A stretch of DNA of 64,000 nt, from positions 19,245 to 83,244 of the forward strand of contig JAKLHK010000012.1 in NCBI GenBank assembly GCA_022710185.1, in the 5' to 3' direction. Below the pieces are notes generated by a model that ran no database searches, was not told the DNA's origin, and was given only the letters and a program-made list of their open reading frames with translations. A program made the position numbers and the translations under genes. The number at the start of each line of letters is the position of its first letter. Within the stretch, counting starts at the first letter, position 1. Below, in pieces: positions 5,127 through 52,563 of this stretch. This stretch comes from Bacteroidota bacterium. GTDB taxonomy: Bacteria > Bacteroidota > Bacteroidia > Bacteroidales > JAGNHN01.

Positions 5127-6467
5127 TCATGGGCGTGTTTTTCGGCTGATACTGCCGTAGGCTGTCAGGCAACGTACCCTGGCCTGGGCATGGTCAAGCA
5201 TGGGCCGGGGATACCCGCTACGCCCGAACTCGGGCACCCAGCGCCGGATGTAGTCGGAATGCGGATCGAATTTCTGTTGCTGGGTCCAGGGATTGAAAAT
5301 GCGAAAATAGGGTGCGGCATCGCATCCTGTACCTGCAGCCCACTGCCAGTTCCCGTTATTGGATGCCAGCTCGTAATCCAGGAGATGACGGGCAAACCAG
5401 GCCTCCCCTATCCTCCAGTCGATGAGCAGGTGCTTGCTAAGGAAGCTGGCGACAATCATGCGCACGCGGTTGTGCATGAACCCGGTGGCCAGCAGTTCGC
5501 GCATGCCGGCATCGACGATGGGGAAACCGGTGGTCCCTTCCATCCAGCGCTTCATATCCCCGGGATCGTTGATCCAGGGCAGGGCATCGTATTCGCTGCG
5601 GAAGGCCCCTTCGGTCACATGGGGAAAATGCCACATCACCTGCATAAAGAACTCACGCCATATCAGCTCGTTGAGCCAGGTCTCACTAAGGCCGAGGGCC
5701 AGGGAAACCGCTTCCCTCACTGGGATGGTGCCGAACCTAAGCAAGGCTCCGATACGGCTTGTTCCTGCCAGGTCCGGACGATCCCTGTGGTCTGCATATC
5801 CACTGATCAGGTCGGATACAGGGGGAAAGCTGCCCGTTTCATAGGCTGATGCCCGGAATCCGATCTCCTCCAGCGAAGGAAGTCGGGTAATGAAGGAGAG
5901 GAAGGGGCCGGCCGGGTCAGGAAGCGGCGATATGGCGCCGGGGTCGGATGCCAGGCGTTCCTTCCACCTACGGCTATATGGCGTGAAAACGGTATAGGGC
6001 TTGCCGTCAGGTTTAAGGACTTCGGCGGGGCCGAACACCACCTGGTCCTTGACGGCATGAAACGCTATCCCCTGGCGGCACAGGCCTTCGCTTATATGGT
6101 CATCTCGCCTGCGGGCATAGGGCTCGTAGTCCTCGGTGCAGAACACCTCCCTGATGTCGAGTGAGCGGGTCAGCCATTCCCAGGCCTGGGCCGGCCGGGC
6201 ATGGATAACGTAGAGGGCGCTGTTTCTGCGGCCCAGATCTTCCTGCATACGCATCAAGGCGTCCATGATGAGGCTGAGCCGGCGGTCGTCACGGTCCTCC
6301 AGGGGTTCCAGGATGTCAGGATCGAAGATGAACAACGGCATCACGGGCAGTCCGGAAGCCATCGCCATAGCCAGTCCGCGGTGGTCCCGGAGCCGGAGGT
6401 CGCGCCTGAACCAGAATATATTGAGGGGCCCTTGAGTTGGGGGCAAGGGAGAAAAGGTCTTCAGCAT
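5127..6467 (-). CDS. phrB: Deoxyribodipyrimidine photo-lyase / cryptochrome family FAD-binding protein
   Basis: 446 aa with ..TGFPIVDAGMRELLATGFMHNRVRMIVASFL..NGNWQWAAGTGCDAAPYFRIFNPWTQQQKFD, the hallmark C-terminal FAD-binding region. Confidence 0.88.
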   Translation of the reverse strand: MLKTFSPLPPTQGPLNIFWFRRDLRLRDHRGLAMAMASGLPVMPLFIFDPDILEPLEDRDDRRLSLIMDALMRMQEDLGRRNSALYVIHARPAQAWEWLTRSLDIREVFCTEDYEPYARRRDDHISEGLCRQGIAFHAVKDQVVFGPAEVLKPDGKPYTVFTPYSRRWKERLASDPGAISPLPDPAGPFLSFITRLPSLEEIGFRASAYETGSFPPVSDLISGYADHRDRPDLAGTSRIGALLRFGTIPVREAVSLALGLSETWLNELIWREFFMQVMWHFPHVTEGAFRSEYDALPWINDPGDMKRWMEGTTGFPIVDAGMRELLATGFMHNRVRMIVASFLSKHLLIDWRIGEAWFARHLLDYELASNNGNWQWAAGTGCDAAPYFRIFNPWTQQQKFDPHSDYIRRWVPEFGRSGYPRPMLDHAQARVRCLTAYGSISRKTRP

Positions 6468-6473
6468 AGGGGA

Positions 6474-9400
6474 TCACATCAGTATGCCCGGGATGCGCCA
6501 CCTGCGGCGCAGCAGGAAGAGGGAGATAAGGAAGATGGCCATGGCGGGGCCCAGGGCGAGGTAGATCGGTTGCCAGGGGGAACGGAAGGAAACCGGGGCC
6601 GTGTCGCCGATATTCACGAAACTCGACCAGAAGTAGGGGCTTGCGGCGAGTTCGCCGGCCTGAGTGATATAATCCAGTTTGGCACGCCTGAGGGCCTCGT
6701 CCTTGGGGAGCCCTTCCTTGAGGTAGGCATAGAACGACTCCATGATGGCGGCAGTGGAACGGTCCTCTACCTTCCACAGGCTGATCACGAGGCTGGGGAC
6801 GCCGGAGTACATGAACCCCCGGGCAAGGGTCATGAGCCCCTCCCCTTTCACGTGCTGCCCATAGCCGGTATTGCAGGCGCTGAGCACGGCGAGCTCGGCG
6901 TTCAGCTTCATATTGAAAAGCTCATAAGTGTTGAGGTACCCATCTTCATCTGTGCCCTGTTCGGGGAAGAAGGCCAGGCGACTGTACATGGGCTGGTCGT
7001 TGTTCACCAGGCCGTGGGTGGCGATGTGCAGGATGCGGTAGCCCGAGGCCAGGGCCTTGAAGCGGGATTCTGTGGCTTCCTCCTGCATGAGTATCTTACC
7101 CTTCAATATCTTACCGATGGCGGCTACCTCGTAAAGGGTCTGGGGCAGGTTCATCAGCTCCCCTCCGCGCTCGGCAAAGCGGCTGGCGTTGAGGGCCAGG
7201 GGGGCGTCGGGGTTGAACACGGCAGGTGCGAATGCCAGCAGTTCTCCCCGGGCGTGGCCTTTGGGGCGTTCGAGGGCCTTGATGAGCAAGGCGGCGGAAT
7301 AGCCGTAACTCACGCTGTGGTCGCGCAGCACATAATGTAGGTCGCGGTAATTGATGCGGTCGGTGCGCGAGGCCCGGGAGAGCAGTGACTCGAAAGAAAT
7401 ATATCCCAGCTGCCCGTCCGGGATGATGATGAGCTTGCGGTCTTGTATGAGCGCTTCAAAGGGGTGCAGCAGGATGGCATAGAGGGCATAGGCACTGTTC
7501 ACATAGTCGCGGAACACTTCCCGGGGGGCGCTGACGAGTTGGCCGAGGTCCTGGCGGTTGGGCAGATGGGCGATCAGCGTTTCCAGGGGGGTGGTCAGCA
7601 CCTGGTTCTCGATGCTGACGCCCATTGGGGTCACGCAGAATCCGACCAGGAAGGAGTCGGAGATGTAGTATTCGATCAGGGCCTCATCGGGCTGCAGGCG
7701 GTACTGGATCTCCCGCATGCTGTATATGCGGTTCTCGTACTTGTACTGGTAATATTCGGGGAAGTAGCGTTCGAAGCTGAGGGTAAGCTGGTCCTGTTGC
7801 GTTTGCAGTTGCAGGAGGCGCATCTCCCAGTTCGACATTTTCAGGGAATCGGGCTGGCTGAGCTGGCGTTCTTCGTAGATCAGCTTCTGGAAGGCGGCAA
7901 TGTCGCGGCGCAGGCGGGCTTCTTTGGCCAGGAGGGAGTCGGGGATATCGGCAAACTGACGGGCATCACTTTCCCGGATCTGTTGGTACAGCAGGCTGGC
8001 CTTGGAGCGTTCGGCGATATTGAAGGCCCTTTCGGCATAGGCCATGCTGCCGGTGGCCTTGTATAGTTCAAGGGAGTAGGCCACGGCCTTCTCGTAAATC
8101 TTCTGATGGGAGGCCGTGATCTCCATTTTGCTGGAGTTACTCAGCTGCAGGGTCTTGGTCTTGTCGATCAGGTCGATGAGGTAGGCATAATGTTTCTGTA
8201 CCTCCTGCAGGTGCTGCAGGCTGCGGTCGTACTTCAGGCGTTCTTCAAGGGCCCTGGATTTCTTCTGTACGATGCGGAAGAGTTCGATGGTTTGGAAGGA
8301 GTTGAGGCTGTTACTGCTAGATAACAGTGCGCTTGGCTGTTCTTTGTTTAATAGGATGCCTATGGCGTCATTATAAAATCTCAATGCTTTTTTTATATTC
8401 GAATAGGCATAAACATCAGCAAGATACTCATAACACCAAGCTGTATTATGACTTCTTGGGCCATAATTTCGTAAAGAATAGTCCAACGCGTGAGTAACAT
8501 AAAATTCCGCATCCTTTCTCTTGCCAATCGAATTCAGAAATTCACTGTACAGAAGATATGTATTGTTAAAATTATCCCGATTAGTTACCCGATTATTAAT
8601 GCTTAACTTTATAATTTCTTTGAAATATTTGTCAGCAGATGCATTATTTCCAGCGGCTGCATGAGCCATAGCAAGATTTTTTGTAATATCATTTTGAGAG
8701 TTAATGTTATTATCAGCAATAGTAGAATTTGCTAGATTGAAACTACTGATTGCTTCGTTGTATTGGTTGAATGAATAATATATATTTCCTTCTTCAAGCA
8801 AAACTTTTACCATCTCATTGCTAAGAATCGACTTATTTAGCAAAACAATCCTTTTGGCATTCTTTGTGTATTGTAGCGCTTTATCTTTGTCCCTAATATT
8901 CTTGTATATTCTTGACTTTGCCAAGTTTAAGGAAACTAGTGTTCTTGGACTGTTAATGTTTGGGTACAATGATTCATAGTGATTTAGCACCTTCAATCCT
9001 TCATCATATCGTCCTAGAATAATATACAGGCTTGACAAATTTGTTGCAGACAAAATAATTTTATCATCATCTTCTATACCAATCTTTGTCTTTATTTCAA
9101 GTGCTCTTAAATAATTTTGCAATGCTAGATCATAGTTTCCAAGCTTACGCTCAATTACCCCTATGTTATTGTGAATTGAGGCTAAAAGATAAGACTCCTT
9201 TGCACCAAAATAAATATTATGCAGAGATAAACTCTTAAATACAGACTCTTTAGCCTGATCAACAGAACCAAGAAGATATTCATTAGCAAAATTCAATGAA
9301 TAAAATAGGATAAGCAGCGAATCATAATTAGCATCAACCCTATTTTCAATGATTTTGCAGTACATGCTGCTTATTTCCTTTGACTCACTATATTTTCCCG

Positions 9401-9872
9401 TATTATATAAAACCTTGGCCGTAAAATAATTATACCATAACTTAGCATAAAAATCATTAGGTGAGTCATCTAATACCCTATTAGCGACATGCGAAATTGA
9501 CTCAAACTCAGTGACACCATCAATTTGGACCAGTGAAACCAAAGCCTTAAACAATTCCACGTTATACGGGTATCCCTGCTGTTTATATGCTGTTGCAAGA
9601 GCATAGTATTGAACAACAAGGCTATCTTGAAGAGCCCTCTCTTCGAAATAGGCAACCCTAGCATATATTGACTTAGAGGTTTGCTTAACTTTTTGTATAT
9701 TTACCCCATTGGAAATAAGCAGTCTGCCAACTGCGTCATAACTTGATGACCTCTCAAGTTGTGCGTAAGTAGCTTCTGCACATATTGATCCTACGCCAAA
9801 CAGGAACACTAGGATAACCTGGATACTGAGGCTTGGGATAATATAGCTTGTATGTCTGCCTGTCCTCTTCAA
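6474..9872 (-). CDS. TPR-repeat / CHAT-domain (caspase-like) protease with N-terminal signal or anchor and C-terminal transmembrane anchor
   Basis: 1132-aa uninterrupted ORF with a TTG start. The N-terminus is MKRTGRHTSYIIPSLSIQVILVFLFGVGSICAEA. About 500 aa of Asn/Lys/Tyr-rich TPR-like repeats follow. The C-terminal CHAT region has the His..Cys dyad contexts ILHIATHG and AVLSACNTG. The last 35 aa are a TM helix plus RRRWR. The 5' 1.5 kb is strikingly AT-rich. Confidence 0.85.
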   Translation of the reverse strand: MKRTGRHTSYIIPSLSIQVILVFLFGVGSICAEATYAQLERSSSYDAVGRLLISNGVNIQKVKQTSKSIYARVAYFEERALQDSLVVQYYALATAYKQQGYPYNVELFKALVSLVQIDGVTEFESISHVANRVLDDSPNDFYAKLWYNYFTAKVLYNTGKYSESKEISSMYCKIIENRVDANYDSLLILFYSLNFANEYLLGSVDQAKESVFKSLSLHNIYFGAKESYLLASIHNNIGVIERKLGNYDLALQNYLRALEIKTKIGIEDDDKIILSATNLSSLYIILGRYDEGLKVLNHYESLYPNINSPRTLVSLNLAKSRIYKNIRDKDKALQYTKNAKRIVLLNKSILSNEMVKVLLEEGNIYYSFNQYNEAISSFNLANSTIADNNINSQNDITKNLAMAHAAAGNNASADKYFKEIIKLSINNRVTNRDNFNNTYLLYSEFLNSIGKRKDAEFYVTHALDYSLRNYGPRSHNTAWCYEYLADVYAYSNIKKALRFYNDAIGILLNKEQPSALLSSSNSLNSFQTIELFRIVQKKSRALEERLKYDRSLQHLQEVQKHYAYLIDLIDKTKTLQLSNSSKMEITASHQKIYEKAVAYSLELYKATGSMAYAERAFNIAERSKASLLYQQIRESDARQFADIPDSLLAKEARLRRDIAAFQKLIYEERQLSQPDSLKMSNWEMRLLQLQTQQDQLTLSFERYFPEYYQYKYENRIYSMREIQYRLQPDEALIEYYISDSFLVGFCVTPMGVSIENQVLTTPLETLIAHLPNRQDLGQLVSAPREVFRDYVNSAYALYAILLHPFEALIQDRKLIIIPDGQLGYISFESLLSRASRTDRINYRDLHYVLRDHSVSYGYSAALLIKALERPKGHARGELLAFAPAVFNPDAPLALNASRFAERGGELMNLPQTLYEVAAIGKILKGKILMQEEATESRFKALASGYRILHIATHGLVNNDQPMYSRLAFFPEQGTDEDGYLNTYELFNMKLNAELAVLSACNTGYGQHVKGEGLMTLARGFMYSGVPSLVISLWKVEDRSTAAIMESFYAYLKEGLPKDEALRRAKLDYITQAGELAASPYFWSSFVNIGDTAPVSFRSPWQPIYLALGPAMAIFLISLFLLRRRWRIPGILM

Positions 9873-9928
9873 AACTTATGGAATGGGTAAATATACAAAA
9901 CTTGTGTCATTTTCTAAAATATACGATC

Positions 9929-10195
9929 ATGAGCATCAAAACGGAAGAAAATAATTCAACAATTTTTCAAACAACTCAGAACATGGAACTTATGAACACA
10001 ATTGAAATGCTCTCAGTTCGAGGAGGGCGGCTTTCTTACGGTCCGAGAAAACTCTCAGAGGCTGATATTGAAGTGCCAGACCTTACCTATTCTGGACCAA
10101 AGACGACTTCTGAAAGCGATTTGGAGCAACCAGATCTTACTCAATCCCTCTCGAGGCGTCGTAAATCCTGCCTTCCTACCATATTCTGCTGGTAG
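9929..10195 (+). CDS. Double-glycine-leader peptide precursor 1 (88 aa, two GP..PDLT modules plus a basic/Cys tail)
   Basis: This is the in-frame sub-ORF of track ORF 9848..10195. Leader: MSIKTEENNSTIFQTTQNMELMNTIEMLSVRGG. Core: RLSYGPRKLSEADIEVPDLT YSGPKTTSESDLEQPDLT QSLSRRRKSCLPTIFCW. The leader is paralogous to peptide 2 (NSxIF, EM(L/I)S(V/I)(R/K)GG). The start at 9929 avoids overlap with the CHAT gene start. Confidence 0.6.
   Translation: MSIKTEENNSTIFQTTQNMELMNTIEMLSVRGGRLSYGPRKLSEADIEVPDLTYSGPKTTSESDLEQPDLTQSLSRRRKSCLPTIFCW
10034..10141 (+). repeat. Tandem 54-nt (18-codon) coding repeat inside peptide 1
   Basis: SYGPRKLSEADIEVPDLT (10034-10087) against YSGPKTTSESDLEQPDLT (10088-10141). 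The amino-acid motif is conserved with different synonymous codons. Confidence 0.65.
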
Positions 10196-10216
10196 AAAGA
10201 GGCCTTTCTTTTCTTA
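10194..10216 (+). terminator. Weak AT-rich hairpin plus T-tract after peptide 1
   Basis: AGAAAG(10194-10199)/CTTTCT(10204-10209) with loop AGGC, then TTTCTT. A second 6-bp hairpin GTTCCC/GGGAAC lies at 10229-10244. Confidence 0.3.
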
Positions 10217-10283
10217 CTTAACGACATAGTTCCCTAACGGGAACAAAATCAGTTGATTCAGAAATCTTAAAACAACAATAGTC

Positions 10284-10418
10284 ATGGAAAATTCCAACAT
10301 CTTTAGTAATGTTACTGTTTTGTCATTCGAAGAAATGATCTCAATTAAAGGTGGAAATGCTGGTCCTGGCGAAAAAGCTGGAGACAGTACATCAATTGAC
10401 CAGCCTGATCTGACCTAG
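10284..10418 (+). CDS. Double-glycine-leader peptide precursor 2 (44 aa, one GP..PDLT module ending at the stop codon)
   Basis: Not in the ORF track (under 60 aa). Manual translation gives MENSNIFSNVTVLSFEEMISIKGG | NAGPGEKAGDSTSIDQPDLT*. LSxEEMxxIKGG is a textbook bacteriocin-type GG leader. Confidence 0.6.
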   Translation: MENSNIFSNVTVLSFEEMISIKGGNAGPGEKAGDSTSIDQPDLT

Positions 10419-10447
10419 TCGGATAGTCTTCGTCCGCACTTTCTTTT

Positions 10448-10485: not shown

Positions 10486-11751
10486 TTGTGTATCGTGGAC
10501 ATTTTCAACAAGGTCGTTAACAATATGGGTCCGCTCGGACGGCACTCCGTCATGGCCCATGGGTATTTCACCTTCCCCAAGCTCGAGGGGGAGATCAGCA
10601 ACCGCATGATGTTCCGGGGTAAGGAACGCCTGGTGTGGAGCCTCAACAACTACGCCGGGTTGGGCAACCACCCGGAGGTGCGTAAGGCCGATGCCGATGC
10701 AGCAGCCGAATGGGGCCTCGCCTACCCCATGGGCGCCCGCATGATGTCTGGTCAGACAAAATACCACGAACAACTGGAGCGTGAACTGGCCGCCTTCGAA
10801 AGCAAAGAGGACGCCTTCCTGCTCAACTACGGGTACCAGGGCATGGTATCCATCATCGATGCCATGGTGGATCGCAAGGACGTGATCGTTTACGACTCTG
10901 AAGCCCATGCCTGCATCATCGACGGGGTGCGGCTGCACATGGGCAAGCGCTACGTCTATCCACACAATAATATACAGAACTTCGAGAAAGAACTGCAACG
11001 CGCCCAGCGGCTTACCGAAGAGACGGGCGGGGGCATCCTGGTAATCACCGAAGGGGTTTACGGCATGTCGGGCGACCTGGGCAAGCTGCGGGAGATCGTG
11101 GCCCTGAAAAAGAAATACGCCTTCCGCCTTTTGGTCGACGACGCCCACGGCTTCGGCATTATGGGAGCCACCGGGGCCGGTACCGGGGAACACCTGGGGG
11201 TGCAGGATGAGATCGACCTCTACTTCGGCACGTTCGCCAAAGCCATGGCTGGCATCGGTGCCTTCGTGGCCGGCCCTGCCGACGTAATGCAGTACCTCAG
11301 GTACAATATGCGCTCCCAGACCTTCGCCAAGTCGCTCCCCATGCCCATGGTCATCGGCTCCCTGAAACGACTGGAAATGCTGCGCACCATGCCAGAGCTG
11401 CGGCAACAGTGCTGGACCATCGTAGACGCCCTGCAAAATGGCCTCAAGGCCGCCGGTTTCGACCTGGGCAATACCGAATCCCCGGTAACCCCGGTGATGC
11501 TCAAGGGTGGACTGGGTGAAGCCACCCACCTGACCTTCGATCTCCGGGAGAAGTTCAACATCTTCTGCTCCATCGTCACCTATCCGGTGGTACCCAAGGA
11601 CGTCATCCTCATCCGTCTCATCCCCACCGCCATGCACACACTGGAGGACGTGGATTATACCATCAAGGCCTTTGTGGATGTCAAGGGTAAACTGGACTCC
11701 GGGGAATATGCCCGGCGCGAGATGATGGATGCTGCTGCCTTTATGCAGTAG
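10486..11751 (+). CDS. PLP-dependent alpha-oxoamine synthase family acyltransferase (BioF/KBL/serine-palmitoyltransferase-like)
   Basis: 421 aa (TTG start, or ATG at 10525). Family motifs ..NNYAGLGNHPEV.., ..DDAHGFG.., ..GTFAKAMAGIGAF.. (PLP Lys context). No bio or tdh genes are adjacent, so substrate specificity is unresolved. Confidence 0.85.
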   Translation: MCIVDIFNKVVNNMGPLGRHSVMAHGYFTFPKLEGEISNRMMFRGKERLVWSLNNYAGLGNHPEVRKADADAAAEWGLAYPMGARMMSGQTKYHEQLERELAAFESKEDAFLLNYGYQGMVSIIDAMVDRKDVIVYDSEAHACIIDGVRLHMGKRYVYPHNNIQNFEKELQRAQRLTEETGGGILVITEGVYGMSGDLGKLREIVALKKKYAFRLLVDDAHGFGIMGATGAGTGEHLGVQDEIDLYFGTFAKAMAGIGAFVAGPADVMQYLRYNMRSQTFAKSLPMPMVIGSLKRLEMLRTMPELRQQCWTIVDALQNGLKAAGFDLGNTESPVTPVMLKGGLGEATHLTFDLREKFNIFCSIVTYPVVPKDVILIRLIPTAMHTLEDVDYTIKAFVDVKGKLDSGEYARREMMDAAAFMQ

Positions 11752-11854: not shown

Positions 11855-13360
11855 TCAGGGGGAAAGGCATTTAACGATCAACTTCTGCCCCCCGGCCGTA
11901 AGGATATGGGCAAGGTATAACCCGCCCGGCAGCGCAGCCGGCAAAGAGAAGCTGTTCCCCATGCCCGAGCGCAGCACCAGGAGGCCCGCGCTGTTGTATA
12001 TCTCGATCCGTGCCTGACCCTGAGATGAAGCATGCTCCTCGAGACCGATCTGCCGGGCCAGCGGGTCGAACCATGCCCGGACCACGGGCCCTGAAGGCCC
12101 GGTAACTCCATTGGACGTTGGCATCAGCTTGACATCCAATACAGTGGCCTGATCGTTGATAAGCCCAAGCCCGGCAATGGTGCGGCTGTGATAACCGGTA
12201 GCGCTGAATGTCAGGGTGTAGGTCCCGGCATGAAGATAGCGGTAGTAGTCCCCCAGCGGCAGCCTCGACCAGACATGGGAGCTGTCCGCATCATGGCCCT
12301 GGATGAAAACCCGGGCGTGGAGCGGCTGCCCGCTCAGGGAATCGCTCACGATACCCCTGAGCCCATAACGGGCCTGGTCCATATACCCGAGCAGCGAACG
12401 GAAGTTGGCATTCCAGAAAGTCGGAAGCTGAGTGGCCGCAGGGAATTTGGTGTTCGAGATCTCCAGGGTGAACTCCCGGCACTGATGAAAATAGTTCATG
12501 TAGTCCTGCCTCCCCCCACTGATGCTGTACCAGTCGTAGCCATTGGTGACCCCTGTCCCGAAGTCGTTGAAATATCCGGCAGGGCCATAGGCCTGGGCTG
12601 AATCGGCATACCTATGGCAGACATATTCCCACCAGAGATAGTCTGCCGGCAACTGTGACCAGGTGTCCCAGGGATAGTTGCATACTTCGGCCCCCCCGTG
12701 GATGTTGGCGCTCATGTTGAACTTCTTTGTAGTGGCCAGGGCCATGAAAGCCTGGGTCTCAGGCTGCCATGCATTGCCGTCAGGGTGGGGTCCATCCTGG
12801 GGATCTGGGAAATTGCGGTTGATGTCTACACTGTTGGCGTTGTACCTCCAGGCCCCATTCAGGGTATTGTTGCCATTCCGGAAGGTCCCATCAGGATTCG
12901 CCAGGGGATTGATCCATATCTCCAGGCCGTCCACGAGGGCAGTAGCCATGGGATCTATCCCGTATTTCCCAAGCAGGTGTTCGGCCAGGCGCAGCAGAAG
13001 CACGTAGCCCACAAGCTCATCGCCATGCATGCTGCTGGTGTAGAGGAAACGGGGTTCGGCTTCCAGGCTGTCCACATGGTCGCTGATGACCAGGGCGAGC
13101 AGTCGCCGCCCGCTGCTCAGGGTATCCAGGGCCTCCAGCCGGCAAAGCCCGGGATGCAGTGCGGCGAACTGGGCCATCAGGGTTTCATAGGATGGGTAAT
13201 TGGGATAGAAATCCCAGATAGTGTCAGGAAGGCTTGCAAGGCTATCTCCCCCACTACGGGCCTTTAACGGAGGGGAAGCGATGAGGAGGAGCAACATCAA
13301 CAGGGGAACAAGCGGAACATTCCTGCACATTATAATATATTGTCTATGGCAAAGGGTCAT
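11855..13360 (-). CDS. M14 family zinc carboxypeptidase with T9SS C-terminal sorting domain
   Basis: 501 aa with a signal peptide and M14 motifs SSMHGDELVGY and NIHGGAEV. The C-terminus ARIEIYNSAGLLV..LPGGLYLAHILTAGGQKLIVKCL fits the Por/T9SS CTD pattern. Confidence 0.85.
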   Translation of the reverse strand: MTLCHRQYIIMCRNVPLVPLLMLLLLIASPPLKARSGGDSLASLPDTIWDFYPNYPSYETLMAQFAALHPGLCRLEALDTLSSGRRLLALVISDHVDSLEAEPRFLYTSSMHGDELVGYVLLLRLAEHLLGKYGIDPMATALVDGLEIWINPLANPDGTFRNGNNTLNGAWRYNANSVDINRNFPDPQDGPHPDGNAWQPETQAFMALATTKKFNMSANIHGGAEVCNYPWDTWSQLPADYLWWEYVCHRYADSAQAYGPAGYFNDFGTGVTNGYDWYSISGGRQDYMNYFHQCREFTLEISNTKFPAATQLPTFWNANFRSLLGYMDQARYGLRGIVSDSLSGQPLHARVFIQGHDADSSHVWSRLPLGDYYRYLHAGTYTLTFSATGYHSRTIAGLGLINDQATVLDVKLMPTSNGVTGPSGPVVRAWFDPLARQIGLEEHASSQGQARIEIYNSAGLLVLRSGMGNSFSLPAALPGGLYLAHILTAGGQKLIVKCLSP

Positions 13361-15288
13361 GGGGTATGACTGGCATTGGCATCACCGGCACAGATCACCC
13401 GCAGCAAGACCTGGCTCTGGGGTTGCAGGTAAAGCAGCTGTTCCTCGCTGACCCAGTCGGGGCGGGCGAACTGGGCATCCAGGCCCACGAACCTGCGCTG
13501 GATCAGGAGGGCATCGGTACTATTCACGGAGCCGCTGAGGTTTACATCAGCGGCCAGGCGCGGTAAACCCGGAGCAAGGGTATCCAGCTGGGCGAAGTGG
13601 GTCATGGCCAGCAGGGCGTCGGCGGTATTCACCCCTCCCCAGGTCGGCAAAGGGCCGGCAACGAGGCGGTAGGTTCCCGGAGCGACCAGGCTGAGGCTGA
13701 AATAACCCAGGCTATCGGTCTGAAGGGAATCCAGCAGGACACCCAGGGTGTCCAGGAGGTATACTTTCCCTTCTCCGGCCGGACTGTACAAGGAATTATC
13801 GTAGACGACCTGACCGTTCACCGTGAATGCGTCAGGCCTCAAGGCAACATCGAGGCAATGGGCCTGTCCCTGGACCACAGAAATGCCGGTAACCGTCTTG
13901 CTTTGATAGCCTGCCGAAGAAAAGGTCAGGGCATAGGTTCCTGTGGGCAGGTAGCGGTAATAGTCGCCATGCAAGGCCCCGGAGAACACATGCGAACTGT
14001 CGGCATCGTGCCCGGTTATGAAGATCCTGACTTTCAGCGGCTGGCCTGTCAGGCTGTCGGTGACACAGCCATGCAGACCGTTCAGGCTCTGCTCCAGGTA
14101 GTTGAGAAGGCTGCGGTAATTGTAGTTCCAGAAATTGGGTAGCTGGGAAGCGGAGGGTAGCTTGGTGGCGGAGATCTCCAGGGTGAACTCCCGGCCCCGG
14201 TGGAAATAGGTCATGTAGTCCTGCCTTCCCCCATCAATGGAGTACCAGGTGGCCCCGTGGGTGACCCCGGTACCGAAATCGTCCATATATCCGCTGGGAC
14301 TATAGAACTGGGCGGTGTCGGCATATTGGTTGCAGACATACTGCCACCACAGCTCATCGGGATGGAGTTTCTGGAAGGCATACCAGGTATCCCAGGGATA
14401 ATTGCAAACCTCGGCGCCCCCATGGATGTTGCACGACATGCTAAATCGCCGGGCTGAGGCAAAGTTCATGAAGATCTGGGTCTCGGGTTGCCAGGCATTA
14501 CCGTCTGGATGGGGCCCATCCTCTGGATCAGGATAGTTGCGGTTAAGGTCCACCCAGTTGGCATTGTAGCGGGTAGCCCCGAGTACGGATTGGTTTCCCG
14601 ATCGGTAGGTACCGTCAGGATTGGCCAGGGGGTTGATCCAGATATCTATGCTATCGACCATCCGCTGGATGCGGGCATCGGTGGCGTAGTTGCTGAGAAG
14701 GTAATCGGCCAGGCGCAGCAGGAGCACATAGCCCACTATCTCATCACCATGCATGGAAGAGGTATAAAGGAAAGCCGGCTCGGCCTCTGCACTGTCCGGA
14801 TGATCCGTAATTCTGAGGGCAAGAATTTTACGACCTGAGGCCAGGGTACCCAGGTTGTGCATGCGGCAGAGGTTAGGGTATTGCAGGGCAAAGTCAGCCA
14901 TCATGCTTTCGTAGGTGGGGTATGTTGGATAGGTGTTCCACGACCAGGTGGTTTTCAGCATGCTGTCGTTGAACATGTCCACGGGATAGGATGGGCGCGA
15001 AGGCAATGGCAGCAGGGCATGGCTGATCTTGCGCTGCAGCAGTCCGAGGTACATCCGGGGGCTGAGGTAGGCATAGAGGGAATCCCCTTCGGCGCGGTCG
15101 GGTGTAAGCCAGCGTTGGAGAGAATCCATAGGCACGGCATTTCGGTGTATCCGGACATAGGCTCCGGCGCTATCCGGAGGGTAGACCTGTGCCTGGGCTG
15201 ATGCTATGATCGTAATGGCGAAGAGCAGGATACCAAGCCTCACCCCTGCAGCCGTCTGTCTGATCATCATGCCAGTTGCGCCATACAA
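13357..15288 (-). CDS. M14 family zinc carboxypeptidase paralog with C-terminal CarboxypepD_reg-like and dockerin-like repeats
   Basis: 643 aa with the same M14 motifs (SSMHGDEIVGY, NIHGGAEV). The C-terminus has paired dockerin-like segments GGVNTADALLAMTHF and DVNLSGSVNSTDALLIQRRFVG. It overlaps the downstream paralog by 4 nt (ATGA). The likely true start is at MMIRQ (about 15270). Confidence 0.85.
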   Translation of the reverse strand: MYGATGMMIRQTAAGVRLGILLFAITIIASAQAQVYPPDSAGAYVRIHRNAVPMDSLQRWLTPDRAEGDSLYAYLSPRMYLGLLQRKISHALLPLPSRPSYPVDMFNDSMLKTTWSWNTYPTYPTYESMMADFALQYPNLCRMHNLGTLASGRKILALRITDHPDSAEAEPAFLYTSSMHGDEIVGYVLLLRLADYLLSNYATDARIQRMVDSIDIWINPLANPDGTYRSGNQSVLGATRYNANWVDLNRNYPDPEDGPHPDGNAWQPETQIFMNFASARRFSMSCNIHGGAEVCNYPWDTWYAFQKLHPDELWWQYVCNQYADTAQFYSPSGYMDDFGTGVTHGATWYSIDGGRQDYMTYFHRGREFTLEISATKLPSASQLPNFWNYNYRSLLNYLEQSLNGLHGCVTDSLTGQPLKVRIFITGHDADSSHVFSGALHGDYYRYLPTGTYALTFSSAGYQSKTVTGISVVQGQAHCLDVALRPDAFTVNGQVVYDNSLYSPAGEGKVYLLDTLGVLLDSLQTDSLGYFSLSLVAPGTYRLVAGPLPTWGGVNTADALLAMTHFAQLDTLAPGLPRLAADVNLSGSVNSTDALLIQRRFVGLDAQFARPDWVSEEQLLYLQPQSQVLLRVICAGDANASHTP

Positions 15289-16748: not shown

Positions 16749-17510
16749 GTGCACATAACATTCCTGGGAACGGGGACCTCACTTGGAGTGCCGGTGATCG
16801 GTTGCTCCTGCAGTGTATGCACCTCTCCTGACCCACGTGATCAACGCCTGCGGTCCTCTCTTCTTATACGGACTGAAGGAATCAGTCTGGTAGTTGATGC
16901 GGGCCCCGACTTCAGGCAACAGATGTTGCGTGAAAGGGTAGACCGCCTGGATGCTGTATTGCTTACGCATGGGCACAAAGACCATACCGGTGGACTGGAT
17001 GACATCCGGAGCTTTAATTTCCTGCAGCGGAGGTCAATGCCGGTATACGCGCGGGAGGAGGTGCTCCGTTCGGTCCGCCAGGAGTTCTCCTATGTTTTTC
17101 ATGAAGATCCCTATCCGGGGGTACCCCAGCTAACCCTGCACGCACTGACGGGGGCCCCCTTCCGGGTTGGCCCTTTGGAGGTGCAGCCCGTACCTGTTCT
17201 GCACGGGGAAATGCCCGTAATGGGTTTCCGCATCGGTGATTTCACGTATGTCACTGATGCCAACCATATCCCTGAGGAGAGCATGGCGTTGATCCGGGGA
17301 ACGAGGATACTGGTGCTCAATGCACTGCAGTTGAAAAAGCATTATTCCCATTTCTGTCTTGAAGAAGCCCTTGCGGTGATACAAGAGCTGGCACCTGAGC
17401 AGGCATACCTGACCCATGTGGGGCACCGCATGGGGATACACGAGGAGGTATGCCGTGGCCTACCCGACAACGTTAGCCTGGGTTGGGACGGACTGTCGTT
17501 TACGATCTGA
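16749..17510 (+). CDS. MBL-fold metallo-hydrolase (PhnP-like)
   Basis: 253 aa with a GTG start. FLGTGTSLGVPVIGCSC..C and the THGHKDHTGG (HxHxDH) motif. Confidence 0.85.
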   Translation: MHITFLGTGTSLGVPVIGCSCSVCTSPDPRDQRLRSSLLIRTEGISLVVDAGPDFRQQMLRERVDRLDAVLLTHGHKDHTGGLDDIRSFNFLQRRSMPVYAREEVLRSVRQEFSYVFHEDPYPGVPQLTLHALTGAPFRVGPLEVQPVPVLHGEMPVMGFRIGDFTYVTDANHIPEESMALIRGTRILVLNALQLKKHYSHFCLEEALAVIQELAPEQAYLTHVGHRMGIHEEVCRGLPDNVSLGWDGLSFTI

Positions 17511-28661: not shown

Positions 28662-28692
28662 TCCACATTAATTAACCTTATTCTACTCCAGC

Positions 28693-29940
28693 ATGGCAAT
28701 ACTCAGAATGTTCAGGGGCTGGCGCCCACCGGCCCATCTGGCCGCCCAGGTGGCCTCCAGGCCCTATGATGTACTCAACTCCGACGAAGCACGGCAGGAA
28801 GCCGAAGGTAACCCCTACTCCCTGCTGCATATCATCAAGCCCGAGATCGACATGGACCCCGCTATTGATGTGCACGATGCATCGGTATACCAAAAAGCGG
28901 CCGAGAACTTTGGATTCTTCAAGCACCAGGGATGGCTGCAGCAGGATCCGGAAGCCTATCTCTACATCTATGCCCAGACGATGTTCGGAAAGACCCAGTA
29001 CGGCATCGTGGGCTGCGCCTCGGTTGACGACTATCTCGACGGCATCATCCGCAAGCATGAGCTCACCCGTCCTGACAAGGAAGAAGACCGCATGAAGCAT
29101 GTACGCATCAACAATGCCAACATGGAGCCGGTGTTCTTCAGCTACCCCGCAGTGCCCGAGATCGATGCCATCGTTCTGGATATCACCCGCAGGCAGAAAC
29201 CTGAATACGATTTTGTGGCCGATGACGGTGTGGGCCACCATTTCTGGGTGATCAGGGACCAGGCAGTGAATGCCCGCATCATTGAACTGTTCTCGGCCAT
29301 ACCCTTCACCTATGTGGCCGACGGCCACCACCGCACTGCCGCGGCCGCCCTGGTTGGCAAAGAGAAACGCGAGCAACATCCAGACTATACCGGTGAAGAA
29401 GAATTCAATTTCTTCCTTGCCGTGCACTTCCCCGACGATCAGCTCACCATCATCGACTACAACCGGGTAGTTACCGACCTCAACGGCATGGATGCCCCTG
29501 CTTTCCTGCAGCGCCTGCAGGAGGGCTTTGTGGTGGAGGACAAGGGAACGGAGATATACAAGCCCTGCTGCCTGCACAACTTCTCCCTCTACCTTGAGGG
29601 TCGTTGGTACAGTCTTAGCGCCCGACCAGGAACCTTCGATGACGCAGACCCGATCGGGGTGCTGGATGTGACCATCCTTAGTCAGCAGGTTTTCGATAAG
29701 TTGCTGGAACTGGGCAACCTGCGTACCTCCAAACGGATTGACTTCGTGGGCGGTATCCGTGGCCTCGGGGAGCTGAAAAAGCGCGTGGACAGCGGGGAGA
29801 TGAAAGCAGCCTTCGCACTGTATCCCGTATCCATGAACCAACTCATCGACATCGCTGACACCGGCAACATCATGCCTCCCAAGACCACCTGGTTCGAACC
29901 CAAGCTGCGTTCGGGACTGGTGGTCCACGAGCTGATATAA
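28693..29940 (+). CDS. DUF1015 domain-containing protein
   Basis: 415 aa: FRGWRPPAHLAAQVASRPYDVLNSDEAR..VADGHHRTAAA... The family is commonly linked to serA/serC in Bacteroidota. Confidence 0.85.
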   Translation: MAILRMFRGWRPPAHLAAQVASRPYDVLNSDEARQEAEGNPYSLLHIIKPEIDMDPAIDVHDASVYQKAAENFGFFKHQGWLQQDPEAYLYIYAQTMFGKTQYGIVGCASVDDYLDGIIRKHELTRPDKEEDRMKHVRINNANMEPVFFSYPAVPEIDAIVLDITRRQKPEYDFVADDGVGHHFWVIRDQAVNARIIELFSAIPFTYVADGHHRTAAAALVGKEKREQHPDYTGEEEFNFFLAVHFPDDQLTIIDYNRVVTDLNGMDAPAFLQRLQEGFVVEDKGTEIYKPCCLHNFSLYLEGRWYSLSARPGTFDDADPIGVLDVTILSQQVFDKLLELGNLRTSKRIDFVGGIRGLGELKKRVDSGEMKAAFALYPVSMNQLIDIADTGNIMPPKTTWFEPKLRSGLVVHELI

Positions 29941-29962
29941 TCTTCCCAGGCGTGTACCATTC

Positions 29963-29992
29963 AAGGCTCCTGAAGGAACAGGGGCCTTTTTT
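29963..29992 (+). terminator. Intrinsic terminator after the DUF1015 gene
   Basis: 8-bp stem AAGGCTCC/GGGGCCTT (one G-U pair) with a 10-nt loop, then TTTTTT. Confidence 0.6.
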
Positions 29993-30106
29993 ATGTCGGT
30001 GATGTCCCTCTCATGAATCTCTGCCACGGCCAGCCAGGGGCTATTCCACATTTTTCACATCCTCAGGTTCAGCATTAGCATGTATTGAAATATGTAGGGT
30101 CTTTGT

Positions 30107-51126: not shown

Positions 51127-52563
51127 ATGGATAAGGATTTTATTGGAGTGTGGGATCGGTGTCTGCATATCATAAAGGACAACATCAGCCACCAGAAGTT
51201 CAAGACCTGGTTCGAGCCCATCAAACCAATCAAGATCGAGGATCATGTACTTACGATTCAGGTTCCCAGCCAGTTTTTCTATGAATGGCTTGAGGAGCAC
51301 TATATCAATTTGCTGAAGAAGACCATCCGCCAGGAACTCGGGGCCGACGGCCGCCTGGAGTATAGTATTGTAATGGACAGCGCCTTCGCCGGAGAAGACC
51401 CGCTGACCATCAACCTGCCCACGTCCAACAAGCGCTCCGTAAAAAACGATCCCGTTTCCATGCCCCTTGACCTGAACAAGGGTAACTCCAAAGAAATCCC
51501 GAACCCCTTCATCATCCCAGGCCTCAAAAAACTCAAGATCCACTCCCAGCTCAACGACAGCTATTCCTTCGAGAACTTTGTGGAAGGCGACTGCAACCGA
51601 CTGGCCCGGTCGGCAGGATATGCCGTGGCCAACAACCCGGGCAAGACCGCCTTCAACCCCCTGTTCATCTATAGCAATACCGGACTGGGTAAAACCCACC
51701 TGGCGCATGCCATCGGTCTGCAGGTCAAGGAGAACTTCCCCGACAAGACCGTGCTCTACCTGGCCGCCGAACAGTTTATCCAGCAGTTCGTGGAGTCGGT
51801 GCGTAACAACACCCAGAACGACTTCGTCCATTTTTATCAGATGATCGACGTGCTGATCATCGATGATATCCAGTTCCTGGCCAGTAAGGAAAAGACCCAG
51901 AATGTCTTCTTCCATATCTTCAACCATTTGCACCAGAACGGCAAACAACTGGTCATCACTTCCGACAAGGCGCCTGTGGAGCTCAAGGGGATGGAGACCC
52001 GCCTGCTCTCCCGCTTCAAATGGGGATTGGCCGCCGACCTGCAGGTGCCCGATATCGAGACCCGGATCGCCATCCTGGAGAAGAAGCTATACAATGACGG
52101 CATTACCATGCCGAAGGATGTGGTGGAATACCTCGCCTACTGCATCACAACCAATATCCGCGAACTGGAAGGCGCGCTCATCTCCATCATGGCGCAGTCG
52201 TCGCTCAATAAGAAGGAGATCACGCTCGACCTGGCCAAGCAGATGATCGACAAGTTCGTGAAGAACACCTCGCGCGAGATATCCATCGACTATATTCAGA
52301 AGGTGGTGTGCGATTACTTCAGCCTGCCGATCGACCAGATGAACTCCAAGACCCGCAAGCGGGAGATCGTACAGGCCCGCCAACTGGCCATGTATTTCTC
52401 AAAGAAGCACACCAAAGCCTCCCTGGCGACCATAGGGCTGCACTGCGGCAACAAGGACCACGCTACCGTGCTCCATGCCTGCCGTACAGTGAACAACCTT
52501 ATCGAAACCGACAAGCAGTTCAGGATCTACGTGGAAGAGCTCGAAAAGAAGATCAAGATCTGA
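51127..52563 (+). CDS. dnaA: Chromosomal replication initiator protein DnaA
   Basis: 478 aa with Walker A SNTGLGKTHL, an AAA+ core, and the C-terminal DNA-binding domain ..REIVQARQLAMYFSKK..IGLHCGNKDHATVLHA.. Confidence 0.95.
   Translation: MDKDFIGVWDRCLHIIKDNISHQKFKTWFEPIKPIKIEDHVLTIQVPSQFFYEWLEEHYINLLKKTIRQELGADGRLEYSIVMDSAFAGEDPLTINLPTSNKRSVKNDPVSMPLDLNKGNSKEIPNPFIIPGLKKLKIHSQLNDSYSFENFVEGDCNRLARSAGYAVANNPGKTAFNPLFIYSNTGLGKTHLAHAIGLQVKENFPDKTVLYLAAEQFIQQFVESVRNNTQNDFVHFYQMIDVLIIDDIQFLASKEKTQNVFFHIFNHLHQNGKQLVITSDKAPVELKGMETRLLSRFKWGLAADLQVPDIETRIAILEKKLYNDGITMPKDVVEYLAYCITTNIRELEGALISIMAQSSLNKKEITLDLAKQMIDKFVKNTSREISIDYIQKVVCDYFSLPIDQMNSKTRKREIVQARQLAMYFSKKHTKASLATIGLHCGNKDHATVLHACRTVNNLIETDKQFRIYVEELEKKIKI

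Follow-up and report, generated by a model that had tools for sequence, protein, structure and literature searches.

Bacterial proteases that join a tetratricopeptide repeat (TPR) array to a CHAT domain are abundant, and hardly any of their signals and substrates are known outside the Craspase system. Knowledge of TPR-CHAT proteins as a whole is scant: DdvA, the only characterized anti-sigma factor with such a domain, is a precedent for a periplasmic TPR-CHAT protein that controls a sigma factor of extracytoplasmic function (ECF), and the activating signal of this structurally solved protein has been described as elusive (PMC11506125). Peptidase-containing ABC transporters of the C39 type (PCATs) recognize the double-glycine (GG) leaders of their cargo by a published rule, Phi(-12)-X3-Glu(-8)-Phi(-7)..Phi(-4)-x-G-G (PMC6363468). 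Here we analyzed 64,000 nucleotides from a Bacteroidota bacterium (contig JAKLHK010000012.1, positions 19,245 to 83,244 of the forward strand; the whole stretch is called the window below), in which two small GG-leader peptide genes, pep1 and pep2, lie beside a gene for a TPR-CHAT protease. Related peptide genes fall into three deep sub-families, across which the TPR-CHAT gene is the one invariant partner. We put at about an even chance the reading that the peptides are cognate ligands or substrates of the neighboring protease. The features on which the argument rests are as follows, numbered from the first letter of the window.

6474-9872, minus strand: TPR-CHAT protease gene, 1132 aa (Pfam CHAT E=1.5e-63, TPR_12 E=5e-22)
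9929-10195, plus strand: pep1, a pepA-type precursor gene (GG leader, two modules, basic tail, stop codon)
9929-10027, plus strand: GG leader of pep1, from the translation of the open reading frame (ORF)
10028-10087, plus strand: module 1 of pep1, RLSYGPRKLSEADIEVPDLT
10088-10141, plus strand: module 2 of pep1, YSGPKTTSESDLEQPDLT
10142-10192, plus strand: basic tail of pep1, QSLSRRRKSCLPTIFCW
10284-10418, plus strand: pep2, a pepB-type precursor gene (GG leader, one acidic module, stop codon)
10284-10355, plus strand: GG leader of pep2, from the ORF translation
10356-10415, plus strand: acidic module of pep2, NAGPGEKAGDSTSIDQPDLT

The two co-oriented plus-strand ORFs of 9929-10418 encode 88 aa (pep1) and 44 aa (pep2) and are flanked by the minus-strand TPR-CHAT gene and by a Kbl/serine-palmitoyltransferase-like gene (10486-11751); their positions, translations and shared orientation agree with a first-pass annotation made from the sequence alone. 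The locus is identical base for base in six independent assemblies (ENA, Logan, three from JGI and one NCBI metagenome-assembled genome) and is therefore not an assembly artifact. Both ORFs begin with a GG-type leader, as had been proposed, and both leaders obey the PCAT rule, with M-12, E-8, M-7 and V-4 ahead of GG in pep1 and L-12, E-8, M-7 and I-4 ahead of GG in pep2. The PDLT motif of the three modules, first described in the same annotation, is indeed written with differing synonymous codons (CCA GAC CTT ACC, CCA GAT CTT ACT and CCT GAT CTG ACC). Across the pepA family the module is 16-20 aa long and follows the consensus GPGxxx(E/D)xD(I/L/V)(E/D)xPD(L/I)T, and the tail behind it, 17-20 aa long, is basic with a hydrophobic or aromatic end (…ARIFGF, …ARRFFF, …KFYFYL; …TIFCW in the window). 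The mature form of pep2 has 20 aa and is acidic; that of pep1 carries acidic modules and is neutral overall. The earlier description of pep1 as two units with a basic, two-cysteine tail held for the two modules and the basic tail, a layout kept in 10 pep1 homologs, and failed for the tail cysteines, which are not conserved among them. The TAG stop codon of pep2 stands immediately 3' of PDLT, and PDLT-COOH had been suggested as the natural mature end. The homologs do not support this: 1-4 more residues follow PD(L/I) in pepB homologs (C-termini PDLTKD, PDIQYSH, PDITA and PDIKA), and one homolog lacks the motif; the pepB of locus L099 ends in IEIVDGIDF.

A word-indexed protein search with pep1 matched pep1 alone. 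An exhaustive profile search of 1.84 billion representative proteins, with pep2, pep1 residues 1-53 and module 2 as queries, returned seven true relatives: P0224, P0225, P0226, P0228, P0229 and P0232 share the pep1 layout of GG leader, R/K-rich start, two modules and basic tail, and P0231 is a pep2 homolog. Two other profile matches, a 401-aa eukaryote-like repeat protein (P0227) and a 599-aa repeat protein (P0230), were discarded as unrelated. A metagenome scan and two context look-ups added further loci (L094-L097, L098 and L099). When a hidden Markov model (HMM) was built from nine homologs from other metagenomes, with zero window sequences, and run against six-frame translations of about 1 Mb, it scored pep1 at E=1.4e-23 and pep2 at E=3.2e-4. 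The pepA differences among L095, L096 and L097 number 20/19/48, 17/18/46 and 14/10/41 at codon positions 1/2/3; because they concentrate at third positions, the pepA protein is under purifying selection. Differences in the sister-family peptide genes described below are distributed as 76/66/138. Selection on the module at the protein level, already proposed from the codon usage of PDLT, is supported by the third-position bias among homologs and by the conserved motif. The window pair has every mark of the PD(L/I)T family: leader, modules, tail, pepB and an adjoining TPR-CHAT gene.

That the ORFs arose by chance and have no function, or are remnants decaying in AT-rich DNA acquired horizontally, would suit the low-GC, foreign-looking segment in which the peptide genes lie, the lack of a recognizable promoter and the word-based pep1 search that returned only itself. 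We give this reading next to no credence, and the homologs effectively refute it: six loci from different organisms keep the ORFs, their order, the leaders and the modules, and the leave-out HMM score, the third-position bias and the retention of PDLT through synonymous changes all speak against it.

Homologous small ORFs with leader and PDLT modules exist in other genomes, and their neighbors, tabulated for six syntenic loci of the PDLT clade (the window and L095-L099), stand in the order pepA, pepB, kbl-like gene and M14 carboxypeptidase. Three modules spread over two paralogous genes, as the first-pass annotation described them, are thus a design that the clade has kept; the DNA of the kbl-like gene is 80.6% identical between L098 and the window. 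A divergent TPR-CHAT gene (~1135 aa) lies beside pepA wherever the contig extends far enough (the window, L095-L097 and L011). L011 holds the closest TPR-CHAT homolog in the genome collection (50% identity in the CHAT domain), with a PDLT-type peptide gene divergently upstream. The TPR-CHAT neighbor had been recorded in the earlier reading of the window, correctly, and treated there as scenery; it is the invariant partner of the peptides.

This pairing extends well beyond the PDLT clade. The best homolog of the window protease (30% identity) has a divergent GG-leader ORF beside its gene. A scan of one genome per species gave 79 related TPR-CHAT loci, in which a simple leader pattern and then a leader HMM picked out ~45 GG-leader small ORFs. 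All significant leader-HMM matches in 89 loci and the whole window fell within ~1.5 kb upstream of the TPR-CHAT gene, with none elsewhere in those loci or in the rest of the 64 kb, and all but one, which is co-oriented, are divergent from the protease gene. In more than 20 Bacteroidota loci, acidic GG-leader peptides adjoin TPR-CHAT genes. A profile of the sister peptides matches 285 database proteins, 42-51 aa in length and chiefly from Draconibacterium and other Prolixibacteraceae. These carry the name "hypothetical protein" or, via the leader model, "bacteriocin," and all lack a Pfam domain. Short and acidic, their cores show striking conservation: xPKSRDKD(I/V)(F/Y/W)D(F/L)EE(E/N/D), DVPKPTSRP(K/R)EIFDTEE(L/Q) and K(V/S)xDSY(C/A)DLN. 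Four of four look-ups seeded with a peptide gave one shared neighborhood, in which genes for a ~245-aa TonB_C-like protein, an ECF sigma factor and an anti-sigma factor that bears a periplasmic TPR are accompanied by a convergent TPR-CHAT gene and by one to three peptide genes in divergent orientation. No mimic of a peptide core was found in the anti-sigma, TonB-like or CHAT proteins.

An HMM of the sister family, made without window sequences, ranks the two window peptides first and second (pep2 E=6.8e-4, the other 6e-3; the next match has E=11), and the match is confined to the leader. The pepB of L099 and the peptide of L040 bridge the sub-families with a near-identical leader and start (…L(T/S)NDELY(F/L)(L/I)(R/K)GG|TDN…). 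We also had the impression, and only that, of a C-terminal pattern common to the sub-families, with a hydrophobic residue at -7 and an acidic one at -3. A different GG-leader ORF, MERRKYTASFDDMQTFALKNSELDKIKGG|DFWDDLEDWFHTTFGGGSSYHPGDGNVGHGGGPK, lies divergently upstream of the TPR-CHAT gene of L042 (3159-3350, minus strand) and suggests peptide sub-families beyond the three studied. In Lentimicrobium-type loci (L012, L014, L015, L017, L019, L022, L025, L033 and L036), a TPR-CHAT gene of ~1100 aa occurs without a GG peptide and is preceded by a co-oriented gene for a ~405-aa secreted protein (CarboxypepD_reg plus Por_Secre_tail); five of these nine (L012, L014, L025, L033 and L036) have a divergent ECF sigma gene (190-193 aa) upstream. 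The motif TATTACCTTTT…GGATTAA occurs in L012, L017, L025 and L036, and in L012, L017 and L036 it stands upstream of the secreted-protein gene.

The window protease consists of a TPR array (~140-510), a helical middle domain (525-712) and a CHAT caspase fold (~725-1095), with a signal/lipoprotein-like peptide at the N terminus and, at the C terminus, a transmembrane helix followed by RRRWR. It belongs with the TPR-CHAT proteins because a TPR array stands ahead of a CHAT domain that contains a His-Cys dyad, and this catalytic dyad, His953/Cys1000, is invariant in the alignments. In the AlphaFold2 (AF2) model (pLDDT 76), TPR array, middle domain, caspase fold and C-terminal transmembrane helix are all present, and Foldseek matches it best to Craspase Csx29 (E=5e-15), to separase and to the anti-sigma factor DdvA (E range 5e-15 to 1e-12). 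Sequence and model together indicate a competent, catalytically intact protease of the separase/Craspase/DdvA type. Because a signal-like peptide opens the protein and a helix followed by RRRWR closes it, the bulk of the protease should face the periplasm; its placement would thus be extracytoplasmic.

In the window itself, a further link between protease and peptides is compositional, and the first-pass annotation had overlooked it: a single low-GC cassette joins both peptide genes to the TPR-encoding half of the protease gene.

8313-10436, no strand assigned: low-GC mosaic cassette of 2.1 kb, holding protease codons 1-520 (signal peptide and TPR array) and both peptide genes

The GC content of 8313-10436 is 31-42%, against a window average of 56%. 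Within the protease gene, GC at third codon positions (GC3) has a changepoint at codon 520, from 0.31 before to 0.80 after; GC3 is 0.40 in pep1 and 0.32 in pep2, and 0.72-0.78 in the flanking genes. The GC gap between the N and C halves of the protease is 23 points here; across 64 other loci it averages 3.7 and never exceeds 10.7. The changepoint coincides with a low-confidence linker of the AF2 model (517-519) between TPR array and middle domain, and at the right edge 80.6% nucleotide identity to L098 resumes at 10437, 19 nt after pep2. Sequence identity is divided in the same way, with an unusually divergent TPR half: the window protease shares 19-21% with those of L095-97 in the TPR half and 42% in the C half, compared with 57-66% and 76-82% among L095-97 themselves, where the peptide genes have native GC3. 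An assembly chimera was rejected as the source of the mosaic, as the junction is identical in the six assemblies and the reading frame is intact. The search for a low-GC donor lineage gave the same nearest relatives for both halves of the protease. The most economical explanation is that in-frame recombination replaced the TPR array and both peptide genes with DNA from the homologous locus of a low-GC relative. This suggests that sensor half and peptides were exchanged as one unit, and such co-replacement is what would be expected of a receptor-ligand or enzyme-substrate specificity unit.

In the sister loci, a promoter-like motif links the peptide genes to the sigma gene. Prolixibacteraceae-type loci carry a 28-nt motif, GGTTACCTTTT-N10-(C)G(A/T)AT(A/T)A, twice per locus: one copy lies 80-110 nt upstream of the first peptide gene, the other directly upstream of the ECF sigma gene. 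The motif was seen in L081 (3772-3799 and 8896-8923, both on the minus strand), L079, L074, L068, L051, L020, L023, L026 and L040, and a conserved 5' leader of ~80 nt, in two sequence classes, comes after it. ECF sigma genes are typically autoregulated, and since the motif is shared, the simplest reading is that the sister peptide genes belong to the ECF sigma regulon. A weaker relative of the motif, (G/T)ATTACCTTTT-N9-CCGAT(T/A)AA, lies upstream of pepA in L011 and L095-L097. The ~500-aa anti-sigma factor of these neighborhoods (L081, 6799-8313, minus strand, and equivalents) has a long cytoplasmic part with four degenerate repeats of ~45 aa (…E(V/L)xLHKxIxxAVxExD(V/I)xxLRxxL…), then a transmembrane helix and a small periplasmic TPR domain. 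Two further upstream elements were noted. L095 (~5960-5995), L096 (~5940-5975) and L097 (~5875-5910) have a perfect palindrome with 14-nt arms, TCACTTATTTTTGC-NN-GCAAAAATAAGTGA, 50-80 nt upstream of pepA. This palindrome could be an operator or a leader hairpin and does not occur in the window. In the window, a look-alike promoter, GGATAACC-N15-GGGATAATA (9811-9845, plus strand), falls within the annotated protease ORF at its 5' end; the spacing is wrong, a T-run is missing and the position weight matrix (PWM) score is negligible, and it was rejected as probably due to chance.

The shared promoter, together with the divergent arrangement and the short intergenic regions, would also be explained if the peptides were outputs of a stress or sigma regulon (for example, envelope-protective or metal-binding acidic peptides) that share a bidirectional regulatory region with the protease and have no direct contact with it. 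We think this distinctly unlikely. The adjacency is kept in lineages without a local sigma gene, such as the PDLT clade including the window, and also where a PCAT replaces the other neighbors; moreover, the joint exchange of TPR half and peptide genes is hard to explain by co-regulation alone.

If the peptides are ligands or substrates of the protease, they would first be cut after GG and exported by a C39 ABC exporter whose gene would lie elsewhere in the genome. The TPR array, the active site or both would then engage the acidic modules in the periplasm or envelope, much as securin/Scc1 engages separase and Csx30 engages Csx29. As substrates, the peptides would be cut at the repeated D-x-P-D-(L/I) sites, which would free module units and the pepA basic tail; as ligands, they would activate or inhibit the protease. 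In the sister lineages, peptide, protease and ECF sigma/anti-sigma pair might form a feedback loop; the sharing of the promoter is observed there, the loop conjectural. In the window, the sensor half and both peptide genes appear to have been replaced together, fitting a single specificity unit. Several known cases offer leads: clamping of acidic C-terminal peptides is common among TPR domains (EEVD of Hsp70/90), outer membrane proteins activate DegS through their C-terminal peptides, and one developmental pathway of Anabaena involves the CHAT protease HetF, the PatS peptide and HetC, a PCAT-like exporter. More tentatively, we speculate that the whole is a peptide-gated proteolytic module, in which PCAT-exported GG peptides switch a periplasmic TPR-CHAT protease, an autoinducing or self-limiting ECF sigma loop is wired to it in many lineages, and the TPR array and peptides form an exchangeable, pherotype-like cassette; this wider picture is possible, and we would sooner bet against it than for it.

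Several observations weigh against a ligand or substrate role. The first concern is export. No PCAT was found in the 64-kb window (tblastn with two PCATs gave nothing below E=3.8, and Pfam searches of the large ORFs gave none). The window peptides also have no match to curated leader HMMs: TIGR01847/bacteriocin_sig was not reached, and neither NCBIfam (E<=10) nor Pfam gave a match; the comparison with GG-leader models that the first-pass annotation had proposed was negative for these two peptides. Gram-negative PCATs, besides, often pair with an outer-membrane factor and send their cargo outside the cell, and a peptide exported in this way would be separated from a periplasmic protease. The second concern is regulation, as the adjacency of peptide and protease genes could reflect shared regulation; the family promoter motif was not found in the window (PWM scores there peak at 9.8 bits, and real sites reach 28 or more), and tblastn found no sigma or anti-sigma gene, and likewise no TonB-like gene, in the 64 kb. 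Finally, the PDLT modules go undetected by an HMM made from the cores alone of the Prolixibacteraceae sub-family, so the unity of the sub-families rests on leaders and synteny.

On the question of export, the sister loci are informative. Two of five sister-family peptides pass TIGR01847 (17.3 and 18.6 bits; cutoff 15.7), and a complete C39-peptidase ABC transporter (with Peptidase_C39 at E about 2e-36, ABC_membrane and ABC_tran) is encoded directly downstream of the peptide genes in L020 and L031, an arrangement that supports PCAT processing as the likely route for this peptide superfamily. In L094-L098, no C39-peptidase ABC exporter gene lies within +-6 kb.

Adjoining PCATs in L020 and L031 are equally what would be seen if the peptides were unmodified class II-type bacteriocins, PCAT-exported and possibly acting as a two-peptide pair of pepA and pepB. 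The acidic modules would then be a pro-region masking the cationic, hydrophobic pepA tail, and the TPR-CHAT protein an activating protease, an immunity factor or an unrelated neighbor. Two adjoining GG-leader genes recall the class IIb arrangement, the sister peptides carry the database label "bacteriocin" through TIGR01847, and the basic pepA tail of 17-20 aa with its aromatic or hydrophobic end is conserved. Nevertheless, we consider a bacteriocin role unlikely. Mature pepB and all Prolixibacteraceae-type cores are 10-20 aa long, hydrophilic and net acidic (e.g., PKSRDKDVFDFEEE), unlike membrane-active bacteriocins; the cores are strongly conserved between genera rather than diversified, and they match no curated bacteriocin family. 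No immunity-like small membrane protein is conserved in the six syntenic loci, so that of the class IIb features the adjacent genes are present, but the cores are acidic or neutral and a conserved immunity-like gene is lacking.

The first-pass annotation had framed the locus in terms of bacteriocins or of peptides made by ribosomes and modified after translation (RiPPs), and this framing finds no support in the six syntenic PDLT-clade loci, where the cores are acidic and short and where conservation extends to no modification or maturation enzyme, no immunity gene and no exporter. The specific RiPP alternative is that the ORFs are multi-core precursors whose modules are excised and then modified or cyclized by remote enzymes, or that the CHAT protein acts as a legumain-like transpeptidase at D|L. 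The layout of leader plus core suits a precursor, the repeated modules are bounded by invariant GP… and …PD(L/I)T, and a caspase-clan protease always adjoins; in the family alignment of pep1, two repeated modules have invariant flanks and the CHAT protease is the sole conserved enzyme neighbor. Against this, no gene for a radical-SAM, YcaO, LanB/C/M, ATP-grasp or macrocyclase enzyme occurs in the conserved neighborhoods of the examined loci, only pepA is multi-module, always with exactly two modules, and the cores lack the Cys/Ser/Thr patterns of known RiPP classes. Matches to TIGR04149 stayed below its cutoff (best E 0.022-0.11), with no radical-SAM gene in the conserved neighborhoods. For the window as a whole, the earlier statement that a C39/PCAT exporter is absent was upheld by tblastn and Pfam, and its claim of absent radical-SAM, YcaO and lanthipeptide enzymes was not searched exhaustively. 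Taken together, we regard a RiPP origin as very improbable. That the PDLT module was not recognized as a described core in the first pass agrees with our searches: no Pfam or NCBIfam family is matched by the window peptides or by an eight-member PDLT alignment, and the PD(L/I)T peptide family appears to be undescribed in both collections.

Smaller elements of the peptide locus and its surroundings are listed here.

10194-10216 and 10229-10244, plus strand: two hairpins between pep1 and pep2 (sequence and RNA fold, -18.6 kcal/mol, z = -2.35)
10420-10436, plus strand: terminator-like hairpin, then a T-run, 3' of pep2 (pattern scan only)

The two inter-gene hairpins, seen already in the first pass, both fold at the values given, and we infer only that they might have a role in attenuation or processing. 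Housekeeping genes surround the locus, those for photolyase, BamD, RpoZ, CoaBC and a DUF4835 protein to one side and those for two M14 carboxypeptidases and DapA to the other. The M14 genes, beside the kbl-like gene, encode tandem zinc carboxypeptidases with CarboxypepD_reg domains (11855-13360 and 13357-15288, both on the minus strand), and a homolog with a type IX secretion system sorting tail holds the same position in L095-L099; these enzymes may be trimmers of the peptide C-termini or merely syntenic neighbors. At 16749-17510 on the plus strand lies a gene for a 253-aa metallo-beta-lactamase-fold protein, for which a precomputed Pfam match to PF23023 (Anti-Pycsar_Apyc1) exists on the identical L004 copy; its context is apparently chromosomal and housekeeping. 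Two window ORFs on the minus strand, 57582-59654 (690 aa) and 28678-30051 (457 aa), matched no Pfam family at E<=1e-5. Since dnaA lies at 51127-52563, the window may be near the replication origin.

By this pairing, the peptides become the first candidate ligands or substrates for this class of protease. At 14-55 residues they are synthesizable, and candidates are available from hundreds of loci, some of them in cultivable genera (Draconibacterium and Prolixibacter), so that what a periplasmic caspase-like protease senses or cuts becomes testable at the bench. The results would also re-label a set of database "bacteriocins" as probable regulatory peptides, add to the GG-leader peptides a new family whose PD(L/I)T module is repeated and offer a natural example in which a sensor domain and its peptides appear to have been exchanged as a single unit.

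Compared with described systems, the peptides most resemble, by their leaders, the substrates of PCAT/AMS transporters (ComC/CSP, BlpC and class II bacteriocins; TIGR01847), with which they share the leader rule, short precursors and frequent tandem paralogs; related peptides of the superfamily pass TIGR01847, and PCATs adjoin in L020 and L031. The cores described here differ in being acidic and hydrophilic with a new PD(L/I)T module, and no exporter, histidine kinase or immunity gene is near the window peptides. The TIGR04149 GG-Bacteroidales radical-SAM RiPP precursors come from the same phylum and are likewise small with GG-type leaders, but the HMM scores obtained here are below the cutoff (E 0.02-0.11) and the conserved neighborhoods contain no radical-SAM maturase. 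RRNPP cassettes of Firmicutes (Rap-Phr, PlcR-PapR and NprR-NprX) are alike in placing a TPR sensor beside a small exported-peptide gene and in the co-inheritance of sensor and peptide as a specificity cassette, as the GC mosaic of the window suggests. Their receptors, however, are cytoplasmic transcription factors or phosphatases without a protease domain, in a different phylum, and their peptides are exported by Sec and reimported by Opp, whereas the partner here has a signal peptide, a transmembrane helix and a protease output, and the leaders are of the GG rather than the Sec type.

On the side of the protease, separase with securin/Scc1 and the Craspase pair Csx29-Csx30 share the fold (Foldseek), a partner encoded beside the protease and short acidic linear motifs; those systems are cytoplasmic, and their partners are several hundred residues long and have no export leaders. 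DdvA shares the extracytoplasmic TPR-CHAT domain and the His-Cys dyad and is a structural match, and the sister loci resemble it also by the ECF sigma/anti-sigma pair beside the protease. The present protease differs in standing alone as a protein that carries a signal peptide and a C-terminal anchor of its own and is free of any fusion to an anti-sigma domain, and it is paired with small exported peptides; the window has no sigma/anti-sigma pair, and there is no CBASS or CRISPR link. None of the described GG-peptide systems includes a TPR-CHAT protease, the invariant neighbor here, and no paper in the library searched connects CHAT proteins to double-glycine peptides. The GG leader is of a known kind; its obligate pairing with a periplasmic caspase-like protease, joined in sister lineages by an ECF sigma circuit, has not been described before.

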